Shown: positions 551-43,782 of the stretch, in pieces
Layout of the letters: the number at the start of each line of letters is the position of its first letter
Numbering within the stretch: position 1 is the stretch's first letter
Source: a virus
Strand: one strand, 5' to 3'
Length of the DNA stretch: 44,062 nt
Virus record (IMG/VR): IMGVR_UViG_3300045988_030948
Location: 1-44,062 of that record
The notes under the pieces: model-generated
Told to the model about the DNA's origin: nothing
What the model saw: the letters and a program-made list of their open reading frames with translations, nothing else
Database searches by the model: none
Made by a program: the position numbers and the translations under genes

Positions 551-1996
551 ATGATTATCAAAAAATTAGAGTTGTCGAATTTCCAAGTAATTAAGGAGTT
601 CAACGCAGATTTTGAGGGTAATGTATATTTCATTACCGGGGACAATGAGTTAGGAAAATCCACGCTATTAAAGGCAATCGGGGCGTTATTGACCGGGAAC
701 CGGGACGCCGTGTTGCGCAATGGCGAGGAAAAAGGGTTTGCAAAAATGGTTGTAGGCGACGACGGCGAGGAATACGACGTTGAATTGCGATTTACCAAAG
801 CCAACCCACGGGGTACGTTATCAATCAAACAGAAAACAACCGGGATGCGGTCGGACAACGTAAGTATGTTGCAAAAGGTTTTCGGATATACCGATTTTGA
901 CGCCGTGGAGTTTTCCCGTTGGTCGGAAACCGCCGAGGGTCGCCGCAAGCAAGTTGAGTACGTGCGGGCGTTGTTGCCGGAAAATGTGCAAAAACGTATC
1001 GCCGAAATTGACGCCGAGGTTATGACCGTTAAGGACAAACGCAAAGAGGCAAACGCCGAGGTTAAGACGTACACGACCATTTGCACCGCCGCCGAAAAAC
1101 AGTTGAAACCGGGCGACGTCAAAACGTATGCCGAGAAAATCGACATTGCCGACTTAATGGAGGAACAAAACGAGAACGCCCGGTTGATTGAAAAAGCAAA
1201 AACCGTGCGTACCGCTTTGCAAACCCGGACGGAACAATTGGAGGCAATCCCCGGACGTTTAAAAGAAGCGGACGAAACATTGCGTACCGATTTAGAGGCA
1301 ATAGACAAAGATTTGGAAAATGCAAATAAAGAATACGAACGTATCATTGCCGAGGCAAAAAAGGATTTGGAGGCGGCAAAACAGGCACATAAAGCCAATA
1401 CAAAAAACGCTAAAGATGAACACGCCGAAACATTGGAGGTTATCGCAAAGGATAAAGCCGATTACGAAACCCGCAAGAACAACGCCGCCGAATGGTTAAA
1501 GAAATACGAGGAAAACAACCCGGAAAAATTGGATACGGCGGAACGCCTCAAACAAGTCGAGGAACATAACAAAATAAATGCGTTGGTTGTGGACTATGTG
1601 GCAAAGAAAAAGCAAAAGGACGCCGCCGAAAAGGTCGCCCAAACCCACGAAAAAACGTTGTCGGATTTACTCAAAGAACGGGAAACCCTTATTGCAAAAT
1701 CGAAATTGCCAATTGCCGGGTTGACGTTCACGGACGACGGGTTGGAATTAAACGGCGTTCCGTTTGTTGCCGGGAAAGTATCAGATAGTCAAATTATGGA
1801 GGTTGCCGCAAAACTTATCATTGCAAGCAATCCGACCGTTAAAGTATTCCGCATTGCGAGGGGCGAAAGTTTGGGCGCAAAACGTCTACAATCCCTTATC
1901 GAATTAGCCCGCAAAGAGGGTTATCAAGGCTTTATTGAGGAAGTCAAACGAGGACAGGACGATTTAATTATTGAGGAATACAGCGAAAACGAATAA
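551..1996 (+). CDS. SMC-like (RecF/SbcC/Rad50-type) ATPase
   Basis: 481 aa. N-terminus MIIKKLELSNFQ...FITGDNELGKST (Walker A). The middle is long, charged and coiled-coil-like. The C-terminus has GESLGAKR and GFIEEV (signature-like and Walker B-like). No Mre11/SbcD-like partner gene is present. Confidence 0.75.
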   Translation: MIIKKLELSNFQVIKEFNADFEGNVYFITGDNELGKSTLLKAIGALLTGNRDAVLRNGEEKGFAKMVVGDDGEEYDVELRFTKANPRGTLSIKQKTTGMRSDNVSMLQKVFGYTDFDAVEFSRWSETAEGRRKQVEYVRALLPENVQKRIAEIDAEVMTVKDKRKEANAEVKTYTTICTAAEKQLKPGDVKTYAEKIDIADLMEEQNENARLIEKAKTVRTALQTRTEQLEAIPGRLKEADETLRTDLEAIDKDLENANKEYERIIAEAKKDLEAAKQAHKANTKNAKDEHAETLEVIAKDKADYETRKNNAAEWLKKYEENNPEKLDTAERLKQVEEHNKINALVVDYVAKKKQKDAAEKVAQTHEKTLSDLLKERETLIAKSKLPIAGLTFTDDGLELNGVPFVAGKVSDSQIMEVAAKLIIASNPTVKVFRIARGESLGAKRLQSLIELARKEGYQGFIEEVKRGQDDLIIEEYSENE

Positions 1997-2040: not shown

Positions 2041-3201
2041 ATGGCATATACATTGAACGAAAATTTGAAACGTTGGGCGGAACAATACGAAACCGCCGAG
2101 TTTATCCAATCCGACCCGGTGCAATTCCCGCACCGTTACGATAGCCGGGTAAACATTGAGATAAGCGCATTTGTGACGGCGTGGATTGCGTGGGGTTCCC
2201 GCAAACAGATAATCAAAAAGGCGGATTTTATCGACCGGGAAATTTTCCACGGTGCGCCGTATCATTACATTGTCGGAACCGACACACAGGGAGCCGCCCC
2301 GGAATGGAAGCAATACAAAGGCAGTACCGAAAGTTTTTACCGAACGTTTACGTTTGGCGATTTCCACGACCTTTGCGCCCGGTTGTATGATGTGTACACG
2401 TCGGCGGAAAGCATGGAGGCGGCAATAAAGAAAACCCACGAAACAAACGGCGAAACCGCATTGTCAACATTGCAATCGTTGTTCGGTTCCGTTAATGGTA
2501 TCCCGGATTTTGAAACCCAATCAGCGTGTAAACGGTTGTGTCTATTTTTGCGTTGGATGTGTCGCAAGGGTTCCCCGGTTGATTTTGGATTGTGGACGGT
2601 ATGCGAACCCCGTAATTTGATTATCCCGTTGGATACACACGTACATAAACAGGCAATCCGGTTGGGGTTGACGACACGACGGACGTCGGATTTGCGCACC
2701 GCCATTGAGATAACCGACCGTTTCGCCGAGATATTCCCGGACGACCCGACCAAAGGGGATTTTGCATTGTTCGGTTATGGGGTTAATAATGGCAAAGTTT
2801 CCCCGGTTACAGAGGAACCCGAAAAAGAAAAAGAGCAACCAACCCCGGTTGCGGATTTGAGTATTGCGGACGTTCTGAAAATGCCGTTGTTCTTTGACAA
2901 TGTGAAAACCCAATTAATGAGCCTTTGGAACGACCGGGAAACCGTCCGCAAAAAAGCCGCAAAGGATAACCAACGATTGAAAGCGCACGTTATCGACCGT
3001 ATGCACAATGCCGGGGATTGGGAGCCGGGAAAATTCGTTGTTATTTTCGCAACAATATTGGATAAAGTGGCAACCGGGTATTCGTCAAACGAACGGGAAT
3101 TTATCCGGGCGGTTGGAATGACAGCGTTTAATATTACCATGCAAAAGTTAATCGACGATGAAAAAAAGAGAGATAACAGCGACGGGAACGATAAACAATA
3201 A
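2041..3201 (+). CDS. DUF2400/TIGR02757-family protein (HhH-GPD-like) with an extra C-terminal region
   Basis: 386 aa. Motifs DPVQFPHRY, KRLCLFLRWMCR, VDFGLW, IIPLDTHVHKQAIRLGL and DPTKGDFALFGYG match the family as I remember it. PLDTHV...RLGL resembles the Nth-type VDTHVxRVxxRLG helix. The last ~130 aa are unassigned. Confidence 0.75.
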   Translation: MAYTLNENLKRWAEQYETAEFIQSDPVQFPHRYDSRVNIEISAFVTAWIAWGSRKQIIKKADFIDREIFHGAPYHYIVGTDTQGAAPEWKQYKGSTESFYRTFTFGDFHDLCARLYDVYTSAESMEAAIKKTHETNGETALSTLQSLFGSVNGIPDFETQSACKRLCLFLRWMCRKGSPVDFGLWTVCEPRNLIIPLDTHVHKQAIRLGLTTRRTSDLRTAIEITDRFAEIFPDDPTKGDFALFGYGVNNGKVSPVTEEPEKEKEQPTPVADLSIADVLKMPLFFDNVKTQLMSLWNDRETVRKKAAKDNQRLKAHVIDRMHNAGDWEPGKFVVIFATILDKVATGYSSNEREFIRAVGMTAFNITMQKLIDDEKKRDNSDGNDKQ

Positions 3202-3778: not shown

Positions 3779-3985
3779 ATGGAATTAAACGACAAATCCC
3801 CGATGCCGCAAGGTAAATTTAAGGGGCAACCGATGGAAAACGTACCGTATTGGCATTTGCTTTGGTTAGAGAACCAACCATATTGCCGCAAAGATGTAAA
3901 ACAATACATTGAGGAAAACCGGGACGTTTTGGAGTTGGAGAAAAAGCGGGATAAATACCGCAATGAGAGCGAAAACAGTAATTAA
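3779..3985 (+). CDS. DUF3820-like protein
   Basis: MPQGKFKGQPMENVPYWHLLWLENQ resembles the MPFGKYKG...VP..YL.WL motif of the DUF3820 family. I chose the internal ATG of ORF 3731..3985 so that it abuts the upstream stop. Confidence 0.55.
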   Translation: MELNDKSPMPQGKFKGQPMENVPYWHLLWLENQPYCRKDVKQYIEENRDVLELEKKRDKYRNESENSN

Positions 3986-4004
3986 CGATTTAATATTTAA
4001 GGTT

Positions 4005-4838
4005 ATGCAAAAAATTGATTTGAAAGATGTTTGTTTCTTTGATTGTGAAACAACCGGGGTTCCGGCAAAGGGTTTGAAATGGGATGCGGATTTTGAGCAA
4101 TTCCCGCACGTCGTCCAATTGGCATGGTCGTTGGGCGATAAGGAAAAAAGTTATATTATCAAACCCGATAATTACGAGATACCCCCGGAAACAACCGCAA
4201 TTCATGGTATAACAACCGAACGGGCAATTGCCGAGGGCGTGCCGTTTGCCGAGGTTGTGGACGAATTTTTAGCGGATGCCAACGCCGCCCCGCTTGTATG
4301 TGCGCACAACATTTACTTTGATAGTTCAATGTTAAAAGCAAACGTTTTGCGCTATTGTGGACGGGAATATTACGACGCACACGTTGAGGACGCATTACAT
4401 AAGGGCAAACGCATTGATACAATGATGAAAACGATTAAGTTTGTCGGCGCATTGTATTCAAACGGGCGACCGGGAAAATATCCCAAATTAGAGGAATTAT
4501 ATAGTAAGTTATTCCCCGGCGAAACATTCCCGGCGCATGACGCATTAGAGGACATAAGGGCGTTGCGCCGTTGCGTCCCGGAATTGGTCGAATTAGGGAT
4601 TATTGAGTTGGCGCAAAAGGAATACCCGGCGGAACAACTCAAAGCGAAATTTGAGCCGGAAAAGCCCCAAACCGGGGGTATTGAGTTTAACGACCCGAAC
4701 CCCGTAACGGAACCAATCGGAACCGGGAACCCCAAACAGGAACCCGCACCGGAGCCGGAACCAATCCCGGAGCATCAACGCCCGGCGGTCGCCCGGAATA
4801 AGACGACAAAGGATTTGTTGGACGAAAGCGAATTTTAA
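4005..4838 (+). CDS. DnaQ-like 3'-5' exonuclease (DEDDh family)
   Basis: Has FFDCETTG (Exo I), AHNIYFDSSML (Exo II) and HDALEDIRAL (Exo III, DEDDh). The C-terminus is Pro/Glu-rich and ends in LLDESEF. The start could instead be 3963. Confidence 0.85.
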   Translation: MQKIDLKDVCFFDCETTGVPAKGLKWDADFEQFPHVVQLAWSLGDKEKSYIIKPDNYEIPPETTAIHGITTERAIAEGVPFAEVVDEFLADANAAPLVCAHNIYFDSSMLKANVLRYCGREYYDAHVEDALHKGKRIDTMMKTIKFVGALYSNGRPGKYPKLEELYSKLFPGETFPAHDALEDIRALRRCVPELVELGIIELAQKEYPAEQLKAKFEPEKPQTGGIEFNDPNPVTEPIGTGNPKQEPAPEPEPIPEHQRPAVARNKTTKDLLDESEF

Positions 4839-4842
4839 GATT

Positions 4843-5730
4843 ATGGCAAAGCGAACAAAGGACGAATTTACACGGGATTGGATAATTGAAAATTCAATTG
4901 ACGTGTTGAGCCAATACGAAAACGGTATATTGACGATACGTGCGTTGCATTATCAGTTAGTTAGCCGGGGAATGACGAACACGTTACAGCATTACAAACG
5001 TGTTGTCGCCGCAATGGAGGTCGCCCGGTGGGACGGTCGGGTTGATTTCGAGGCGTTCAGCGACCGAGATAGGGCAATGTGTGGAACGACAAGAGCCACG
5101 GAAACCGTATTGGAGGACAAACAGGACGAAGCCAAACGACAGGTCGGATTATGGATGCGTTCGTATGGCAAAAATCGTTGGGAAAATCAACCGTATTACC
5201 CCGAAATTCTTATTGAGAAAAAAGCATTAGAGGGCGTTTTTGCGAAACCGTGCGCCAAATGGGATATTGCGGTTGGAGCGTGCAAAGGTTATCCGTCGTT
5301 GACGTTCTTATATGAGTTGTCCGAGCGTTTACGGGACGCCCAAAGTAAGGGTAAACAACCGATTATATTATATTTCGGCGATTACGACCCGTCCGGCGAG
5401 GACATACCCCGGTCGATTGGGGAAAACCTGCAAAAGTTCGGCGTTTACGATGTGGAAATACGCCGTATTGCCTTAATGGAACAACAGGTTATCGAATGGA
5501 AATTGCCGCCCGCCCCGGCAAAAGAAACGGACAGCCGGACGGCGAATTGGGACGGATTGGGACAGGTCGAGTTAGACGCCGTAAAACCGGAAAAATTGAT
5601 TTCCATGTTGAACGATGCGGTTAACGAGATATTCTACCAAGTTTTGTACGACGAATTAATTACACAGGAAGCCGAGGAACGGGAATTATTCCAAGCCGAG
5701 TTAAAACGATACGTCGAAAACGATTTGTAA
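4843..5730 (+). CDS. Topo VI subunit A / Spo11-like winged-helix + Toprim protein (stand-alone)
   Basis: 295 aa. Contains RALHYQL (candidate catalytic Tyr in a winged helix), ILIEKKALEGVF (Toprim Glu), CKGYPS and LYFGDYDPSGEDI (DxD), in Top6A order. No Top6B/GHKL gene is present. Confidence 0.7.
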   Translation: MAKRTKDEFTRDWIIENSIDVLSQYENGILTIRALHYQLVSRGMTNTLQHYKRVVAAMEVARWDGRVDFEAFSDRDRAMCGTTRATETVLEDKQDEAKRQVGLWMRSYGKNRWENQPYYPEILIEKKALEGVFAKPCAKWDIAVGACKGYPSLTFLYELSERLRDAQSKGKQPIILYFGDYDPSGEDIPRSIGENLQKFGVYDVEIRRIALMEQQVIEWKLPPAPAKETDSRTANWDGLGQVELDAVKPEKLISMLNDAVNEIFYQVLYDELITQEAEERELFQAELKRYVENDL

Positions 5731-5736
5731 AACCGA

Positions 5737-5754
5737 GCCGGGCGGGTTCCCGGC
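5737..5754 (+). terminator. intergenic GC hairpin (GCCGGG-CGGGTT-CCCGGC)
   Basis: 6-bp stem. The loop and inner stem are identical to the P1 leader hairpin. Confidence 0.5.
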
Positions 5755-5772
5755 ACTAAATAATTATCAAAT

Positions 5773-6468
5773 ATGAGCGAGAAAAAAGAAAACGCAAACG
5801 TAATGTTGATACCGACCGAAAAGGCGTTTGCATTGTCGAAAGTAAAAACGTTAAAGGATGGCGGGTTAGATGTTCATTACGAAGTTACCGAAACCGTCGG
5901 TAATGAAAGTTATACGAACAAATACCACGTCGAAAGCGCAAAGGATATACACCCCGATTTACGGGATTGTTTCGACCGTTTGCGTCCAATTATGGGGCGT
6001 ATTTTCAATATCACGTCGTTTTTGTCCCTTATGGATACGCCGGATATGAAAGCCAATGAAAAACAGAAAAACGCCGCCCGTAACTTTGCGGACGAAATGT
6101 TGAAAAACATTGAGGTTAGGGGCGTGTCCCTTTCCGGTCAAGACGATAACGTTGGTTGCGTCCTTACGGGGTTGTTCACGGTATCCAACAACCAAAAGAC
6201 GGCGATAAATTCGCCCCGTCTGAAATTCAATACCGAAACGTTCGGTTTTGAGGAAGAATTGGAAGAAATTATTGGCGACATTGAAAACGAGGTTTACGCT
6301 TTTCTTTTCAAAGGGAAAAAGGCACAATTGGAATTGTTCGGAGCCGATGGGGAAGCCGCACCCGGAATGAGTGCAGAACCGGAAAACACCGGATTGTTCC
6401 CGGATGTTGACGACCCCGCAAATGAGGACGAAAACGAACCCGGCGACGACGATACGGACAATATGTAA
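5773..6468 (+). CDS. hypothetical protein with acidic C-terminal tail
   Basis: 231 aa. The last ~45 aa are strongly acidic (DVDDPANEDENEPGDDDTDNM). No domain recognised. Confidence 0.6.
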   Translation: MSEKKENANVMLIPTEKAFALSKVKTLKDGGLDVHYEVTETVGNESYTNKYHVESAKDIHPDLRDCFDRLRPIMGRIFNITSFLSLMDTPDMKANEKQKNAARNFADEMLKNIEVRGVSLSGQDDNVGCVLTGLFTVSNNQKTAINSPRLKFNTETFGFEEELEEIIGDIENEVYAFLFKGKKAQLELFGADGEAAPGMSAEPENTGLFPDVDDPANEDENEPGDDDTDNM

Positions 6469-7875: not shown

Positions 7876-8733
7876 ATGTGTATGGGAGCGATAAACGGAC
7901 GGGTTATTTATAGCCCAAAGGGTAAAGCCGGGGAATATGCCGAGAATGCCGCCAACTTTTACGTTGGTTGTTCAAACGATTGTACGTACTGTTATTTGCG
8001 CAAAGGTCGTGGCGCAAAAGTGTTGGGAGGCAATCGCCCGGAGTTGAAAAAGACGTTGCGGGAATACCCGTATGCGTTGGATATATTCACGAACGAATTA
8101 TTGAAGCATAAGGACGAATTGCAGAAAACCGGGTTGTTCTTTTCATTCACGACCGACCCGTTGTTGCCGGAAACGCAAAGGTTGACCCGCCAAGCGGTCG
8201 GCGTTTGCCAACGTAACGGCGTCCCGGTTAAGATATTGAGCAAATGCGCCGAGGGGATAAACGTATTTATCGACTTTGCCGAGGCGTCCGAGGGTTGGGA
8301 CGTGTCCCGCATTGCCATTGGTTCGACGTTGACCGGGTGCGACGAATTAGAACCCAACGCAAGCCCAAACAAGATGCGTATAAACGCATTGGCACGGGCG
8401 AAACGCCACGGGTTCCGCACCTTTGCAAGCGTGGAGCCAATCCCGCCGGGTATGTTTGACCGGGCGTTTGCCGTAATTGCTTTGTCGTATCCGTTCGTTG
8501 ACCTTTTCAAAATCGGATTGCAAAGCGGTTGCAGATATACCAAACGGGATACGTTGGCATTCTATCAAACCGTAACGGAATATTGGGAGGCGCACCCAAA
8601 GAGTACGCCCCGAATATATTGGAAAGATAGTTTTGTAAAGGCGTCCGGGATTGAACGGGAATTGTTGCCCGTCCATTGCGTCCCAGCAAATTGGGATTTG
8701 TTTAACGAAAACAGGAACGAAAATGCAGTTTAA
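7876..8733 (+). CDS. radical SAM protein, SplB/COG1533 (DNA repair photolyase)-like
   Basis: CX3CX2C cluster in NFYVGCSNDCTYCYLRKG, followed by SFTTDPLLPE (compare TDPYQP in COG1533 proteins). Confidence 0.75.
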   Translation: MCMGAINGRVIYSPKGKAGEYAENAANFYVGCSNDCTYCYLRKGRGAKVLGGNRPELKKTLREYPYALDIFTNELLKHKDELQKTGLFFSFTTDPLLPETQRLTRQAVGVCQRNGVPVKILSKCAEGINVFIDFAEASEGWDVSRIAIGSTLTGCDELEPNASPNKMRINALARAKRHGFRTFASVEPIPPGMFDRAFAVIALSYPFVDLFKIGLQSGCRYTKRDTLAFYQTVTEYWEAHPKSTPRIYWKDSFVKASGIERELLPVHCVPANWDLFNENRNENAV

Positions 8734-10348: not shown

Positions 10349-11383
10349 ATGAACAAAATGAATTTATCCCCCTTTGATTGCGATATGTGCGCAATGATTG
10401 AGGACTTAACAAAAACGGCGGTTGAGATTGAAACAACCCCGGAAAATATCCATTTGAGTTGGGAGCAATCCCCGTGCGATAAAACAACCCCGGAGGGTCA
10501 AAAAGCCACGGCGATACAACAAGCCGTTAACGGTCGATTAGGAAACCGGGCGTTAATGTGGGAATATAAGGACGGACGGCAAAACGTTTGGTTTGCATCC
10601 GACCCGACCGAATACCCGGAGGAACAACGGGATTTTTCGGTTGCTATTGACCCCAAAGCCGGACAACGTTATTGTCGTACCTTACAGGAAGTAACCGCAA
10701 TACAAGTTGACCGGGAAAAGTTGGAGGAATTGAAAGCGTTTACGGGCGGCGGTATGCTAACAATCCCACGGGAACTAAACGCCCGTGCAATATACACGTT
10801 TCCCAACGGTAACGGTATGTTGGTAGATGTGCCGGAAACCTTTTTTATCATCCGGGACGACGCCAACGATTTTACCACGATGCACCCCAAAGAGTTTACC
10901 CGATTGTATGAACCCAAAGGAATACAAACCGTTGGAAATTATGACGGATTACCCGCCCGCCCGTCGATTACTGAAATTGTCGATTTGTTCAATGAGTTGT
11001 TCGGAACCAATATTGCGTCCCGTTGCCGAAAAATTGAGGAAGAGTTTAACGAGTACAAAGGAGCGGTAAAACACGCAATGCCAACATTCGACGACCCCGG
11101 ACGTATGAACACCGTAATTGATGAATTGGCAGACCTTAACGCAGTTGTATTTCATTCCGCCGCAATATTAGGCATACCACAACGGGAATTGTTGGAAATG
11201 GCATACGACAAAGTAAAAGGACGCCAAACAAACCCAATGTATAAACGTGCTTATAATTGCGGACATTGCCGCAACTATATGAATGAGGATGCCGACGGCA
11301 ACGGGCATTGTTCCGTGCATAAATGGGGGATAACCTATTTTTCCCCGGTAAACGAATGTACAGATTTCAAACCATTAAAATAA
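10349..11383 (+). CDS. MazG-like nucleotide pyrophosphohydrolase domain fused to an unknown N-terminal domain and a Cys-rich tail
   Basis: 344 aa. aa ~205-300 carry KIEEEFNEY ... IDELADL ... YDKVKGR (the EExxE/ExxD pattern of all-alpha NTP-PPases). The C-terminus has CGHCRNY...GHCSVHKW...C. Confidence 0.65.
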   Translation: MNKMNLSPFDCDMCAMIEDLTKTAVEIETTPENIHLSWEQSPCDKTTPEGQKATAIQQAVNGRLGNRALMWEYKDGRQNVWFASDPTEYPEEQRDFSVAIDPKAGQRYCRTLQEVTAIQVDREKLEELKAFTGGGMLTIPRELNARAIYTFPNGNGMLVDVPETFFIIRDDANDFTTMHPKEFTRLYEPKGIQTVGNYDGLPARPSITEIVDLFNELFGTNIASRCRKIEEEFNEYKGAVKHAMPTFDDPGRMNTVIDELADLNAVVFHSAAILGIPQRELLEMAYDKVKGRQTNPMYKRAYNCGHCRNYMNEDADGNGHCSVHKWGITYFSPVNECTDFKPLK

Positions 11384-38991: not shown

Positions 38992-39193
38992 CGGGTTACA
39001 ATGGTTTGAACGCATGGCGGACGTTATGTTTTCCGATATGTTCCAAGCGAAAGCGATTATTGCGACGTTTGGAACGTTGGGCGTTGTTTGTCTGATTGGC
39101 GCATTTTGGAACCCGTGGCAATTGATGTTTGCGGGTATGTGTGCCGCAATGGTATTATGTGGATTTTCAGAATTAAAAAAGAGTAGAAAATGA
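38981..39193 (+). CDS. small membrane protein (70 aa)
   Basis: I chose the internal ATG of track ORF 38897..39193. Two hydrophobic segments (IIATFGTLGVVCLIGAF and LMFAGMCAAMVLCGF). Confidence 0.45.
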   Translation: MKNNGLQWFERMADVMFSDMFQAKAIIATFGTLGVVCLIGAFWNPWQLMFAGMCAAMVLCGFSELKKSRK

Positions 39194-40533
39194 GAGCGAA
39201 CAAAAAGAAACCGGAAAACCCGGTACAAAAGACGGTCGAAAGTTTGGGAGCCGTTCCCGCCGACCAATTCCCGGAAATTACCGAGGAACAACAACAAATA
39301 ATCCCCCCGTTTGAAGCGGTCGAGGTTGAGCAACCAACCGGAATATTTGAGATATTGCCGGGCATGACGGTTGAGGAAATGACGGCTATGTTTTTTGATG
39401 AAAAAACGTTGATTGAACCCCCGTATAAGGTTTGGCAATTGAATAGTAAGGGACACCGCTATTATTACCGATACGACGACAACGGGAACCCGGAGTTTTT
39501 CCCGTCGGTTACAACGATATTGTCCCAAACGTTACCCAAAGCCCCGCACTTAATACAATGGATTGCCAACAAAGGCATTGAGGAAGCGGAACGATATAAA
39601 GGCGAACGGGCGGCGTATGGTACGTTTATGCACGCCGCATTTGAGGAATTATTAATTAACCGGGCTTATGATTTGGACGGGTTAAAAGGCAAACTAAAAG
39701 AATATATTGAGGTTTACCGATTGCCGGACGACTTTATTTATTACGCCGACGATTTGAAAAAGGACGTATTGGCGTTTGCTCAATTCGTATTAGATTACGA
39801 CGTTCGCCCGTTGGCGGTTGAAATTGCGTTAGTGCATCCATATTATAAGTATGCCGGAATGATTGATTGCCCGTGTACCATGTTGGCAAAGATAGGCGGC
39901 GACGAACGTATTAACGCAATCGTCGATTTTAAGAGCGGGCGCAAAGGTTTTTACGAGGAAAGCGAGATACAATTAGGAATGTACCGGGATATGTGGAACG
40001 TCAATTTTGAGCAATTCCCCGTTACACGTATTTTCAATTTCAGCCCGAAAGATTGGCGCAAACGTCCGTCGTACAATCTGAAAGAACAAACAGATAGCCC
40101 CAATATTCGGAAAATCCCGTATCTATTGGAAATTGCGGCTATTGAGGACGAAAAGAAAGATAATACGTTTACGTCGGTTAATGGTATGGTATTGTTAGAC
40201 AATGCCCCGGATTTAACGCAAAACGTAATATCCTTATCGTTGGCGGAATTGATTAAAACGAAAGCCCCAAAGGAGGCGACCCCGGACGAAAACACGGACG
40301 CCGCCGAGAAAGTCAAGGCGGATGCACCGGAACCGGAAAAGGAGCCAAAGAAAACAACCATTGTTAAACGTGCGTCCAAAAAGGCAAAGGAGCCGGAAAA
40401 GAAAGCCACCACGGGCAAAACGACCGCAAAGCGGGGTAATACCACGGAAAAGAAAGTAAAGCCCGCAAATGAGCCTAAAAAGCCCAAAAATGAGAGTAGG
40501 AAAAAGATGTTGAACGACGACCCCGAAATTTGA
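39190..40533 (+). CDS. PD-(D/E)XK (RecB/Cas4-like) exonuclease with Lys-rich C-terminal tail
   Basis: GTFMHAAFEE, YAGMIDCP, IVDFKSG and EIQLGMY give the D...(D/E)xK...QxxxY order. The last ~100 aa are rich in K, P, E and A. Confidence 0.7.
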   Translation: MRANKKKPENPVQKTVESLGAVPADQFPEITEEQQQIIPPFEAVEVEQPTGIFEILPGMTVEEMTAMFFDEKTLIEPPYKVWQLNSKGHRYYYRYDDNGNPEFFPSVTTILSQTLPKAPHLIQWIANKGIEEAERYKGERAAYGTFMHAAFEELLINRAYDLDGLKGKLKEYIEVYRLPDDFIYYADDLKKDVLAFAQFVLDYDVRPLAVEIALVHPYYKYAGMIDCPCTMLAKIGGDERINAIVDFKSGRKGFYEESEIQLGMYRDMWNVNFEQFPVTRIFNFSPKDWRKRPSYNLKEQTDSPNIRKIPYLLEIAAIEDEKKDNTFTSVNGMVLLDNAPDLTQNVISLSLAELIKTKAPKEATPDENTDAAEKVKADAPEPEKEPKKTTIVKRASKKAKEPEKKATTGKTTAKRGNTTEKKVKPANEPKKPKNESRKKMLNDDPEI

Positions 40534-40540
40534 TTGAGAT

Positions 40541-41272
40541 ATGAAAGGAAGAATAAAACGACCGGAGGCGCAACAATCCCGTTTAATTTTGCCCCGTGTC
40601 GGTCAAATAAAAATCGGTATGAAAAACGCAAACGGTTATCCGCAAAGTGTTGATTACTTCATACCAACGGGAAAGTATGCCGGGTTATTTACACAGGCAT
40701 ACGGCGAAAAGCCGCAAACAATACAAATTGTTTTCCCGGACGACGACCCGGCAAAAGTATGTAACGAGCGTTACGAATACCGGGACGACGACGGGCGATT
40801 GATTGCGGCGGGCGATGGCGACACTTTCCAAGTATGGGACGGAAAGAAATACGAAACGTTGACAACGGAGAAATACCCAAACTTAATGCAGTCGATAACC
40901 AAGCGTTACCCGAATAAAAAGAGCCGCCAACCCGATTGCGACGGTTGGGAGGTTACATTAACGCTAAACTTTATTGTCCCTTTGGTTCGTGGGGTTGCCG
41001 GGGTTTGGCAATTCGCAACAAAGGGTACGGCGTCCACAATCCCGCAAATTCGGGAAACGTTTGACGGTATGTTGGCGGAACGTGGGTTTTGTAAGGGAGT
41101 GATTTTTGATTTGAATGTACAATTTGCGACAACCCAAAAGCCGGGCGACCGTTCCCGTTTTCCGGTTGTTTCGTTGGTTCCCAATGAGAGTGCCGACAAC
41201 GTATTGAAAGTACGTAAGGCATGGGAACCCGTTAAACAATTGGAGGGCGGCGACAATGGAACGGAAAATTGA
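40541..41272 (+). CDS. hypothetical protein; candidate recombination partner of the upstream exonuclease
   Basis: 243 aa, starting LPRVGQIKIGMKNANGYPQSVDYFIP... No family that I can name. The function guess rests on position only. Confidence 0.35.
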   Translation: MKGRIKRPEAQQSRLILPRVGQIKIGMKNANGYPQSVDYFIPTGKYAGLFTQAYGEKPQTIQIVFPDDDPAKVCNERYEYRDDDGRLIAAGDGDTFQVWDGKKYETLTTEKYPNLMQSITKRYPNKKSRQPDCDGWEVTLTLNFIVPLVRGVAGVWQFATKGTASTIPQIRETFDGMLAERGFCKGVIFDLNVQFATTQKPGDRSRFPVVSLVPNESADNVLKVRKAWEPVKQLEGGDNGTEN

Positions 41273-41477
41273 CATTGAATTGAACGGTATTATTACGCTG
41301 ACTTATACAGACAATAATACAGGACGACGACAACAAACCAAGTTAAAAGCCGTTGAGCGTAAAAGTAACAGTTGCGAAAATTGTTTTTTGCAACAATATT
41401 CATGTTATCGTTTTTCTTGCAATGGTGCAAACCGGGCGGATAAAACGGATATTAAATTTTTGCAAAATGACAATTAG
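41256..41477 (+). CDS. hypothetical Cys-rich protein (73 aa)
   Basis: ORF overlapping both neighbours by 11-17 nt. Has CENC...C...C. Confidence 0.4.
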   Translation: MERKIDIELNGIITLTYTDNNTGRRQQTKLKAVERKSNSCENCFLQQYSCYRFSCNGANRADKTDIKFLQNDN

Positions 41478-42315
41478 AGATAGTAATTATATAACCATTT
41501 TAGCCCCAATGATTACCCGGTTAAAGTTGAAAGGTAACGAATTGTTGGTTTTCGCTTTGATACATGGGTTTAGTCAAGACGGGGAAAGCCGTTTTAAGGG
41601 GTCGTTGCGATACCTTATTGAGTGGACGGGATTAGATAAAACAACCGTTATAAAGTTGCTCAAATCGTTGGTTGAAAAACAGTATATTAACAAATTTGAG
41701 TACGAAAAAAATAAGGTTCGTTATTGTGAGTACACGACGAATTATTGGGCGGCTTTAGAGTGGTTGGAAAATTCCACCACCCCCCCGGTTGAAAAAAACA
41801 ACCACCCCGGTTGCGAAACACAACCACCCCCCCGGTTGGAAAATCCAACCACCGTGGTTGGAAAATCCGACCCTATATTAAATACTGATATAGATAACTC
41901 TTTTGGTATTGATAAGGATAAACCCGCCAACGAGGTTGCCGGGGATTTATTCCCGGACGAACAATTGGAGGTTCAGAACGATAAAAAAAGAACGTCGATA
42001 TTTCGCAATTCCGATGTTTACAAATTGGTTAAGTTTTCGCCCGACGGCAACAACGATTATTCCGAGTTTGAAAAACTGTTTGCGACGCCGGAATTTGAAC
42101 GGGTCGATTTGGTTTATTATTTCCATACGGTCGCCGATTGGTCGGAAACTAAGCAGGGAGTAAAGAGAACCCGGACGGGTTGGATTGCCACGGTACGCAA
42201 CTTTATTCGTGGCGATGTTGAGAAAAAGAAATTGCATTTGAAACCGGAATACCAAGCCCCGCAAAAACGATTGGACGTTGGCGGCGCAATGGATTTCCTT
42301 AATGACAATTATTGA
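41467..42315 (+). CDS. replication initiator / replisome organiser (N-terminal winged HTH)
   Basis: LKGNELLVFALIHGFSQDGESRFKGSLRYLIEWTGLDKTTVIKLLKSLVEKQYI is an HTH_36/DnaD-like wHTH. The gene contains the iteron array. I chose the internal ATG of track ORF 41353..42315. Confidence 0.7.
   Translation: MTIRDSNYITILAPMITRLKLKGNELLVFALIHGFSQDGESRFKGSLRYLIEWTGLDKTTVIKLLKSLVEKQYINKFEYEKNKVRYCEYTTNYWAALEWLENSTTPPVEKNNHPGCETQPPPRLENPTTVVGKSDPILNTDIDNSFGIDKDKPANEVAGDLFPDEQLEVQNDKKRTSIFRNSDVYKLVKFSPDGNNDYSEFEKLFATPEFERVDLVYYFHTVADWSETKQGVKRTRTGWIATVRNFIRGDVEKKKLHLKPEYQAPQKRLDVGGAMDFLNDNY
41761..41925. promoter_or_regulatory. candidate origin of replication: five iterons plus an adjacent AT-rich segment
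   Basis: GGTTG(G/a/c)(A/g)AAA cores start at 41762, 41787, 41809, 41834 and 41856 (spacings 25, 22, 25, 22 nt). Each is preceded by a CCACC/CAACC(C)n arm that forms an inverted repeat. An AT-rich stretch lies at 41871-41925. Confidence 0.7.
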
Positions 42316-42316
42316 T

Positions 42317-43249
42317 ATGGAAAATTTGCCGGAAAAAGTAAATATGCAGTCCGCAGCGTTGGCGATATACAACCCAACGCCCGGTACAAAAGCAATCGAC
42401 ATACGCCGACAAATGGTGCAATTACCGGAGGTTGCCAAATCGTTATCCGGGGTCGAAAAGTACATTTTTGCCGCCTCAACGAAAACGCAAATTGCCGAGA
42501 TTGACGACGGCACGTTGGTTGCCAAAACCGGGCAAATGTTCCGGTTTATTGCTTTGGACGTCGGGTATATAATCCCGACCAATACGGACGATTGGGCGTA
42601 CATTTGTACCCGGTTGTTGGATATACTCAAAAAATACTATTCGCAAATGACGTTGGCGGATATTAAGTTGGCATTTGAGTTGGCGACGACCGGGGAATTG
42701 GACGACTATTTGCCAAAAGACAGTCAAGGCAACCCGGATAAAAAGCATTACCAACAATTCAACGCCGATTATTTCGCAAAGATATTGAACGCATACAGGC
42801 GAAAGCAAAACGGGGTTATCAATAAAGCGTATAAGGCTTTGCCGGAACCGAAAAGGGAGTTGACCCCGGAGCAAAAAAGGTATTACCATAACGAAACGGT
42901 CGCCCGATATAGGGACGTATTTTTGCGGTACAAATATACCGGGCGTTTTGAATTGGGTATTGCTGACGGAATGTTTATATATGATTGGTTGCGGAAACAT
43001 GGGTTAGCCAACGAGATTGCCGGAACCGAGGACGACCGCAAACAGGCATACGCCCGGTATATGCAACGTGTCGCCCGTGGGTTCGTAAACAAATACGAAG
43101 CGTTCCACGTCCAAAAGAAAGGAACCGACGCACCGGAATTGGATTTTACGGCGTATGAGATAGCGAGGGACAAAGAGATAAAACGCACATTTGACCGTAT
43201 GATTGCGGACGAATTGCAGATTGAAAACTATTTAGATTTTTGGAAATGA
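42317..43249 (+). CDS. hypothetical protein downstream of the initiator (helicase-loader position)
   Basis: 311 aa. I chose the ATG 2 nt after the initiator stop. No Walker motif seen. The function guess rests on position only. Confidence 0.5.
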   Translation: MENLPEKVNMQSAALAIYNPTPGTKAIDIRRQMVQLPEVAKSLSGVEKYIFAASTKTQIAEIDDGTLVAKTGQMFRFIALDVGYIIPTNTDDWAYICTRLLDILKKYYSQMTLADIKLAFELATTGELDDYLPKDSQGNPDKKHYQQFNADYFAKILNAYRRKQNGVINKAYKALPEPKRELTPEQKRYYHNETVARYRDVFLRYKYTGRFELGIADGMFIYDWLRKHGLANEIAGTEDDRKQAYARYMQRVARGFVNKYEAFHVQKKGTDAPELDFTAYEIARDKEIKRTFDRMIADELQIENYLDFWK

Positions 43250-43782
43250 ACAAAATAACGATTGATTGTATTATTGGCATTGACCCCGGAAAAACCGGGG
43301 GAATTGCCGTTTGGCGTCCGAACCACAAAACCGAGGTTATCAAAATGCCGGGCGACCTTATGGAGTTGAAACAATGGTTTGAGTACATGAAAAGTATTTG
43401 CCGCCCTTTGGTTTTCGTCGAAAAGGTACAATTGCGCCCCGACGATGTAAACGATAATCCCGGCAAAGCGTTTCGGGTGCAAAAACTGTTATCCGAGTTT
43501 GAAAAACTGAAAACAATAATTGCCATGTGCGACGTACCGTTTGTTTTAGTACACCCCCAAAAATGGCAAAATGAATTGAAATTGCGGGTTAAAGGAGAGG
43601 AAAAACCGGAACGCAAAAAGCGATACCAAAGAGCCGCCGCCAATTATTACCCCGATATTAAGGCGACATTGTGGAATGCCGATGCGCTTATGATTTTGCA
43701 CTTTGGACGATATATTTTGCACAACAACCCCCGTTGGGTTTTGGAAAATTTGCCCGCACCAATGCACAACAGTTTGTTTTAA
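43240..43782 (+). CDS. ruvC: RuvC-like Holliday junction resolvase
   Basis: IIGIDPGKTGGIAVW (first catalytic Asp), VFVEKV (Glu) and NADALMILHFG (terminal Asp) are in the order of phage-type RuvC. Confidence 0.8.
   Translation: MEMNKITIDCIIGIDPGKTGGIAVWRPNHKTEVIKMPGDLMELKQWFEYMKSICRPLVFVEKVQLRPDDVNDNPGKAFRVQKLLSEFEKLKTIIAMCDVPFVLVHPQKWQNELKLRVKGEEKPERKKRYQRAAANYYPDIKATLWNADALMILHFGRYILHNNPRWVLENLPAPMHNSLF

Follow-up and report, generated by a model that had tools for sequence, protein, structure and literature searches.

What does a virus do with the cleavage subunit of a type IIB topoisomerase when it encodes no partner for it? This question is raised by a gene at positions 4843..5730 of a gut-phage sequence, IMG/VR record IMGVR_UViG_3300045988_030948, positions 1 to 44,062. 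That whole stretch of 44,062 bp, hereafter the window, is essentially a complete siphophage genome in which the long open reading frames (ORFs) lie nearly all on the plus strand. The gene is an intact ORF with an ATG start and encodes 295 amino acids (aa). An original prediction, made from the sequence alone, described its product as a stand-alone relative of the A subunit of topoisomerase VI (Top6A) and of Spo11, set in a replication-recombination operon. Judged by its sequence features, the protein is a Mini-A, a new member of an already known family; the window adds no new family. What is new here is that Mini-A is dispensable within a phage genus, where it forms an optional cassette that is frequently lost or exchanged and is under purifying selection when intact.

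The window gene encodes a Mini-A protein of Top6A type

The Mini-A class was defined by Takahashi et al. 2019 (PMC7671362) as proteins of ~300 aa in which the N-terminal 5Y-CAP segment is missing. They carry an R-x-x-Y/F-Y motif, a Toprim E with DxDxxG, and a C-terminal xWELDAL T2BI box that separates them from Topo VI and Topo VIII, and they are encoded only by viruses and proviruses, without a B subunit and with function unknown (PMC7671362). The window protein shows each of these features. At 295 aa, its global HHalign alignment begins at Top6A residue 63; the Arg/Tyr, Toprim E plus DxDxxG and T2BI motifs are all present; and the gene is virus-encoded, the window being ~93% identical to Alistipes phage AS73P1 over this region, and ~85% identical there to each of Parabacteroides phage PDS1 and Bacteroides phage C1_85S2P. 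The Mini-A proteins of the window and of AS73P1 share 97% identity. The absence of a Top6B gene, stated in the original prediction, was confirmed by a Pfam scan of the ORFs of the 44-kb window, which found no GHKL/HATPase_c domain in any of them (E<=0.01; E<=1 for the first ten ORFs).

The assignment to Mini-A is further borne out by a match to PHROG 6247, "DNA topoisomerase" (E=7e-61), and near relatives in GenBank and metagenomes bear the labels "DNA topoisomerase" or "DNA topoisomerase VI". The window protein is 31-36% identical (E=1e-27 to 1e-39) to the Mini-A copies in Chi-like Salmonella, Listeria and Pseudomonas phages, whereas its similarity to Top6A is at profile level only. Chi-like Salmonella phages were cited, and Listeria and Pseudomonas hosts named, as Mini-A carriers in the published description (PMC7671362). 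The family comprises 6,160 clusters at 50% identity (E<=1e-3), nearly all of ~290-310 aa.

Single-sequence searches returned little: the window protein matched nothing in Pfam at E<=1, nothing in the PDB with phmmer, and nothing in NCBIfam or PADLOC. A Mini-A profile searched against PDB sequences gave Top6A (1d3y) as its best match at E=0.3, which is therefore no evidence on its own. When 124 family representatives, drawn one apiece from distinct 50%-identity clusters, were scanned singly against Pfam, the recurrent matches were limited to the Top6A/JetD Toprim group, namely DUF2399 (18 members, weak), TP6A_N (6), TOP6A-Spo11_Toprim (5), JetD_C (5) and DUF7281 (5).

We used HHalign to compare the Mini-A alignment with 73 bona fide Top6A genes drawn from genomes of archaea and bacteria. 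The C-terminal half, which contains the Toprim domain, aligned with 95.3% probability (E=2e-8), and the full-length global alignment reached 86.9% (E=5e-7). In both local and global alignments R33/Y37 correspond to R99/Y103 of M. jannaschii Top6A, the pair singled out in the published Mini-A description (PMC7671362); E125 corresponds to E197 and D180/D182 to D249/D251. The equivalents of R99, Y103, E197, D249 and D251 are invariant across the 73 Top6A sequences, and LPPAPAKETD of Mini-A aligns with LPTHPLKEQD of Top6A.

Structure prediction also led to Top6A. The AlphaFold2 model of the full protein, with a predicted local distance difference test (pLDDT) score of 85.5, matched M. mazei Top6A (9o8p_A) best among PDB structures in Foldseek (probability 0.96), at a template-modelling (TM) score of 0.32 that is low because of inter-domain orientation. 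For the Toprim half (pLDDT 90.4) the top match was again 9o8p_A (E=3e-4, probability 1.00, TM 0.44-0.46). No JetD, MksG or Spo11 structure was among the top 50 fold matches, and the remaining matches were mostly generic alpha/beta folds. Among the viral structures in BFVD, one 152-aa protein is 74% identical to the window protein and is probably half of the split PDS1 gene described below; the other matches were weak and mostly unrelated. Ten long family members were checked for fusions and one was recognisable, the metagenomic P0275 (457 aa), with an N-terminal DUF1643 (E=8e-23). The Top6A/Toprim fold anticipated by the original prediction was thus recovered by both profile and structure searches, which point to a stand-alone Top6A/Spo11-type protein combining a partial 5Y-CAP domain with a predicted Toprim fold whose E...DxD metal site appears homologous to that of Top6A.

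The putative catalytic residues are conserved well above what chance would give. Across the 124 representatives, R33 and Y37 are kept in 122, the two exceptions being one N-terminally truncated and one divergent sequence, and E125, K126, G149, D180, D182, G185 and E243 are invariant (124/124), which covers all the candidate Tyr, Glu and DxD motifs named in the original prediction. At least 116 representatives also retain K227, D230 and R232. Within the T2BI box, E243 is followed by L244 in 114, D245 in 122 and A246 in 121. The window protein departs from the published Mini-A motifs at two positions, and at both it has company in the family. The residue before the predicted catalytic Tyr, published as Tyr/Phe, is His (H36); this position is Y in 91, F in 21 and H in 9 representatives. 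Position 242 of the T2BI box, published as Trp, is Val (QVELDAV, 241-247); here W occurs in 62 and V in 49 of the 124. Among intact copies of the same genus, the ratio of nonsynonymous to synonymous substitution rates (dN/dS) is ~0.11, similar to SSB and other neighbours. The catalytic residues of Top6A type are under strong constraint.

Mini-A compared with known Toprim systems

Mini-A has in common with Top6A (M. jannaschii 1D3Y, M. mazei 9O8P) the Toprim fold, the metal ligands, the Arg/Tyr register and the LPxxPxKxxD motif, but it is without the first ~60-70 residues of Top6A and starts at the Top6A equivalent of ~63-72. This missing segment binds Top6B (PMC7671362). The Topo VI holoenzyme has the composition A2B2 and includes both Top6B and the N-terminal Top6B-binding segment, and Mini-A has neither; unlike Topo VI, Mini-A as encoded would not be expected to perform ATP-driven strand passage, and it is optional rather than essential. 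Spo11 is a Top6A homologue that makes double-strand breaks instead of passing DNA, and it keeps the catalytic Tyr and the Toprim domain as Mini-A does; Mini-A genes, for their part, often stand beside recombination genes. However, Spo11 is eukaryotic and acts with a TopoVIB-like protein and other partners. Topo VIII resembles Mini-A in being restricted to mobile elements and in missing the N-terminal part of 5Y-CAP, but its GHKL B module is either fused to it or encoded alongside, its box reads RVELNAM, and it is found on plasmids, whereas Mini-A has an ELDA box and is found in viruses (PMC7671362).

JetD/MksG and the DUF2399 proteins, like Mini-A, have a Top6A-type Toprim and no ATPase domain of their own. 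MksG is ATP-independent and divalent-cation-dependent, with no catalytic tyrosine in its 5Y-CAP-like domain (PMC10123090), whereas Mini-A keeps this Tyr. JetD/MksG are moreover always encoded with SMC, kleisin and KITE, whereas Mini-A has no conserved partner, and Mini-A had no match to the PADLOC models of JetD/MksG at E<=0.01. The kinship to JetD/MksG suggested in the original prediction holds for the Top6A-type Toprim and for some JetD_C/DUF2399 matches in the family, but not for the tyrosine, the SMC partners or the PADLOC models. OLD/GajA proteins consist of an ABC ATPase fused to Toprim, whereas the 295-aa window protein has no ATPase region. PADLOC gave no match of Mini-A to Gabija GajA or PARIS AriB, and no DnaG/OLD Toprim model was among the 25 most frequent Pfam families of the 124 members.

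Mini-A as an optional occupant of a variable slot

The interval between the stop codon of the upstream DnaQ-like gene and the start of the downstream phrog_9513 gene (window 4839-5772) is referred to here as the slot. We retrieved 80 contigs of the genus through the downstream phrog_9513 gene, which has 358 matches in IMG/VR, avoiding ascertainment via Mini-A, and the slot was fully covered in 75. Mini-A was intact in 24 of these, frameshifted in 2, and truncated in 1 by a deletion that fuses it to DnaQ; a C5 methylase of 285 aa (PF00145, E=1e-29) was found in 5, and the other 43 had no Mini-A. Altogether, 64% of the genus members sampled in this way, methylase contigs included, have no Mini-A. 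Since most members of the genus do without it, the core replication role implied by the original prediction is contradicted.

Several of the absences can be traced to deletion. In-frame remnants, in which the first 5-8 codons are joined to the last 20-27, were kept in 4 of the 43 contigs and represent at least three separate deletions, one of which joins two copies of the 8-nucleotide (nt) repeat GACGAATT (window 4861-4868 and 5650-5657). The states of the slot are interleaved among near-identical backbones: clusters formed at 3% nucleotide distance contain more than one state in 3 of 36 cases, and those formed at 8% in 7 of 16. Frameshifts were also concentrated in Mini-A: among 22 same-genus contigs, 7 had a frameshifted Mini-A, compared with 1 frameshift in ~180 instances of nine neighbour genes (Fisher p=5e-7). 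The lesions lie at codons 59, 68 (a 4-nt deletion), 108 plus 188, 128, 186 and 243. Because they fall at different codons and mostly outside homopolymer runs, we regard them as independent events, which brings the independent inactivations of Mini-A to about ten in total while the neighbour genes stay intact.

Cultured phages also differ in the state of the slot. Mini-A is intact in isolates AS73P1, C1_85S2P and BKO1-3, whose hosts are Alistipes and Bacteroides, and is frameshifted by a 1-nt deletion at codon 128 in PDS1; in PD491P1 the slot holds a 350-aa C5 cytosine DNA methylase (PF00145, E=6e-46). In the PDS1 genome (MN929097, 6926-7812) Mini-A is annotated as two coding sequences, 'DNA topoisomerase' and 'DNA primase', and the 'primase' label is an artefact because the deletion at codon 128 splits the gene. 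Compared with its counterpart in RDJL Phi 2, the Mini-A gene of Roseobacter phage RDJL Phi 1, from a distant clade, carries a frameshift. The slot of relatives holds one of two unrelated orphan C5 methylases (contig L170, 1678-2727; contig L197, 2599-3453) or nothing, and the 285-aa methylase is itself frameshifted in L179, one of the five IMG/VR contigs that carry it. At the right edge of the slot, an intergenic hairpin upstream of phrog_9513 is conserved in empty, Mini-A and methylase contigs; it is unlike a classic terminator because no T-run follows it. The slot is a small hot-spot for accessory genes.

These natural knock-outs show that Mini-A is dispensable for lytic growth and therefore argue against both an essential topoisomerase role and an encoded partner. 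The genus offers a natural experiment, in which cultured, near-syntenic phages have an intact, frameshifted or methylase-bearing slot and dozens of metagenomic genomes have a Mini-A that is cleanly absent or freshly decayed. They make the function of Mini-A testable by isogenic comparisons and by host-range or competition assays.

Mini-A has no conserved encoded partner

To look for partners more widely, we compared the neighbours of Mini-A across 59 clades by BLASTP clustering and across ~55 clades in a Pfam census of the +-1 and +-2 positions. No BLASTP-clustered family occurred in more than 5 of the 59 clades, and in the Pfam census of ~55 clades no family occurred twice, AAA_15/23 included, and none was GHKL or SMC. 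Across phages the neighbours of Mini-A include ligase, Sak4, DUF669, Cas4/PDDEXK exonucleases, RuvC and recombinase, as well as RusA, Rad52, Mu Gam, SSB and DNA polymerase A; Acb2/Acb3-type genes stood beside Mini-A once each. Mini-A thus has no conserved encoded partner.

The original prediction had likened the pairing of this gene with an SMC-like ATPase to the Wadjet/Mks systems. That Mini-A is the nuclease arm of such an SMC-plus-Toprim system together with the ATPase at 551..1996 is very improbable. The two genes lie in one plus-strand operon, 2.8 kb apart, and the ATPase has an SMC/RecF/Rad50-type head. However, its matches in PADLOC and NCBIfam are to generic ABC heads only (the N-termini of AriA, GajA, PtuA, LmuB, RecF and Rad50); the best PADLOC match is AriA (E=6e-11), and the match to JetC is confined to ~50 residues in the Walker A region. 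Kleisin and KITE genes were likewise not found. Among 88 loci carrying Mini-A, it is only within the same genus, where Mini-A identity exceeds ~80%, plus one related contig, that the ATPase and the remaining neighbours from the window stand with Mini-A; at 60-70% Mini-A identity they are gone. Conversely, the ATPase is retained in 40 of 41 same-genus contigs without Mini-A and in 5 of 5 with the methylase. Because the ATPase persists without Mini-A in this way, the Wadjet/Mks analogy is unsupported, and we rejected the link.

Possible functions of Mini-A

The conserved residues suggest that Mini-A is an accessory tyrosine/Mg2+ DNA-cleaving enzyme. A Mini-A homodimer would bind duplex DNA, with E125, D180 and D182 holding Mg2+, and Tyr37, positioned by Arg33, would attack the DNA backbone. 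The expected product would be a double-strand break with staggered cuts, whose 5' ends carry the protein through a covalent 5'-phosphotyrosyl bond, and it would be made without any ATPase partner. The covalent intermediate could then serve resealing, and so ATP-independent relaxation or decatenation; alternatively, the protein-capped breaks could feed the phage recombination machinery. Because the Tyr is near-universal in Mini-A while nuclease-only relatives such as MksG dropped it, the analogy suggests that the covalent intermediate matters.

On balance, we lean towards Mini-A being useful under certain conditions, as a helper in phage DNA replication/recombination or in some other host-dependent function, and being neither essential nor a subunit of a larger encoded complex. 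Several points weigh against this reading. The N-terminal half, which carries the tyrosine, is not significant when aligned to Top6A alone (HHalign E=0.036, probability 1.4%), so that the tyrosine assignment derives from motif register and conservation, and the TM-scores to Top6A are modest (0.32-0.46). Top6A is inactive alone, without Top6B, and an A-only enzyme may therefore need a host or phage partner. We found no report of an activity or biological role of Mini-A in the literature since its description in 2019. The frameshift in PDS1 may be an assembly error; the authors of that genome note that its terminase is split as well and that the assembly may be at fault. Finally, a role in host interaction, or a selfish one, accounts no less well for the frequent loss and for a slot shared with methylases of anti-restriction type.

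Such a host-interaction role, in which Mini-A would be a counter-defence accessory gained and lost according to the defence repertoire of the host, like the orphan methylases that share its slot, is unlikely but carries an appreciable chance. We give the same limited credence to its possible mode of action, which would be to cut or topologically alter host, plasmid or competing-phage DNA, or to shield phage DNA from topology- or end-sensing defence. The exchange with two unrelated C5 methylases or with nothing, the interleaving of these states among near-identical backbones, and repeated independent inactivation combined with purifying selection on intact copies all speak for it; so does the anecdotal pattern (n=5) that a functional copy is lacking in both P. 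distasonis isolates but kept in those from Alistipes and Bacteroides. Mini-A may be a new kind of host-range/counter-defence cassette that alternates with orphan methylases. However, Top6A-derived destructive nucleases such as MksG lost the Tyr (PMC10123090) that 122 of the 124 Mini-A representatives keep, PADLOC has no match for Mini-A, and the family-wide setting is one of replication and recombination genes and not of recognisable anti-defence islands. Rather unlikely, in our judgement, is that Mini-A is an A-only Spo11-like enzyme whose homodimer deliberately makes protein-capped double-strand breaks in replicating phage DNA, launching recombination-dependent replication and concatemers. 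The breaks would be passed to the adjacent exonuclease, annealase, SSB and resolvase, and the gene would be optional since breaks could also come from stalled forks or from host nucleases. If this were true, Mini-A would be a viral analogue, possibly an ancestral relic, of the Topo VI/Spo11 cleavage module.

It is improbable that Mini-A is a selfish gene resembling a homing endonuclease, which would cut the empty site at co-infection, be copied in by repair and then decay. Such a history would explain why the gene is patchily present, its empty sites clean and its pseudogenes frequent. In its favour, Mini-A is a free-standing gene for a predicted DNA-cleaving protein, fitted exactly into the gap from a stop codon to a conserved hairpin, with presence/absence polymorphism among close relatives, many decayed copies and highly variable neighbours across the family. 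But its median dS between genomes (0.75) does not fall below the range of the flanking genes (0.17-1.07), giving no sign of a recent sweep, and we down-weight the idea for that reason. A dN/dS of 0.11 indicates long-term selection for function, and for at least four 'empty' sites the ancestor carried Mini-A and lost it by deletion; these are not naive targets. A tyrosine/Toprim mechanism is also not known from any homing endonuclease. An essential replicative topoisomerase or a DnaG-like primase is hardly credible. Toprim domains do occur in DnaG, and Mini-A lies in a replication module, but the gene is missing from most sampled members of the genus, the frequent Pfam matches of the family include no DnaG/OLD-type Toprim, and HHalign supports Top6A specifically.

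The original prediction stands in its identification of Mini-A, of the candidate residues and of the lack of a detectable B subunit, and falls in the SMC pairing and the core replication role. The type IIB topoisomerase/Spo11 family has three branches, Mini-A among them, and whether Mini-A is an A-only ancestor or a degenerate offshoot bears on how the cleavage module of Topo VI/Spo11 originated.

Genomic setting

The neighbours named in the original prediction, a DnaQ-like exonuclease, a protein with an acidic tail and an ABC/SMC-head ATPase, were correctly described (Table 1). The stop codon (TAA) of the DnaQ-like gene at 4836-4838 is separated by 4 nt from the ATG of Mini-A, and 42 nt separate the end of Mini-A from the phrog_9513 gene.

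Table 1. Coordinates of Mini-A, its motifs and the neighbouring features in the window
Feature	Position	Strand	Basis
Mini-A gene, 295 aa, stand-alone type IIB topoisomerase A-subunit homologue	4843..5730	+	ORF, PHROG 6247, HHalign, PDB fold match
RALHY, residues 33-37, 5Y-CAP active-site motif with predicted catalytic Tyr37	4939-4953	+	Conservation; HHalign register
Toprim domain, ~residues 113-250 (predicted)	5179..5592	+	HHalign of C-terminal half; fold model
IEKKAL, residues 124-129, Toprim Glu	5215-5220 (E125-K126)	+	
KGYPS, residues 148-152	5284-5298	+	
GDYDPSG, residues 179-185 (D180xD182xxG185)	5377-5397	+	
PPAPAKETDSR, residues 222-232, after Toprim core	5506..5538	+	Column-by-column HHalign to Top6A
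VELDAV, residues 242-247, C-terminal T2BI box	5566..5583	+	Motif definition in PMC7671362
Intergenic hairpin G-CCGGG-CGGGTT-CCCGG-C, right edge of slot	5737..5754	+	Sequence read directly
DnaQ-like DEDDh 3'-5' exonuclease, left slot border	3909..4838	+	RNase_T E=3e-10; phrog_192; NCBIfam epsilon-subunit-like
phrog_9513 protein, acidic tail, right slot border	5773..6468	+	phrog_9513 E=6e-27
ABC/SMC-head ATPase, 481 aa	551..1996	+	AAA_15, AAA_23, SMC_N N-terminus (Pfam)

The true start of the DnaQ-like gene is probably an ATG near 4005, its annotated N-terminus being over-extended. Apparent frameshifts in DnaQ (8/73) were rejected as an artefact of an over-long query N-terminus that overlaps the upstream gene. 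The phrog_9513 protein had no significant match in Pfam and none in PADLOC or NCBIfam. Its gene is present in contigs of the genus with or without Mini-A, and the homologues retrieved are all at least 81% identical. Phages further removed (L042, L053, L054, L072) still have this gene linked to an HNH/NinG-like gene and SSB. On that account the phrog_9513 protein may act in the recombination module, either in annealing or in the manner of an SSB.

The module around Mini-A in the window comprises NinB-like, DnaQ-like, HNH/NinG-like, SSB, PDDEXK exonuclease, DnaD-like initiator and RuvC genes. It spans the ends of the window (39190-43782 plus 551-1996), where a phrog_298 PDDEXK-type exonuclease, a Gp3-like protein (PF18897, E=1e-32), the DnaD-like initiator and a phrog_1770 RuvC-type resolvase are followed by the ATPase. 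No DNA polymerase gene was detected in the window, and the phage therefore presumably relies on the host replisome. Positions 2041-3201 encode a DUF2400/TIGR02757 protein (E=2e-63) with a C-terminal extension of ~135 aa; this gene was ~30% matched in several contigs of the same genus (L012, L014, L015, L022, L058, L065, L070) and is therefore also variable in the genus.

Some other Mini-A phages carry queC/queE (PaMx25), aGPT-Pplase/Nmad5 (Pam3), a kinase and MazG (Sano), or PAPS reductase (the Chi-like Salmonella phage 118970_sal1), all of which we take to be genes of DNA base modification or nucleotide-pool editing type. Their co-carriage with Mini-A in these four loci may be coincidence. 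In the window itself, positions 7876-8733 encode a radical SAM protein and positions 10349-11383 a MazG-like one.

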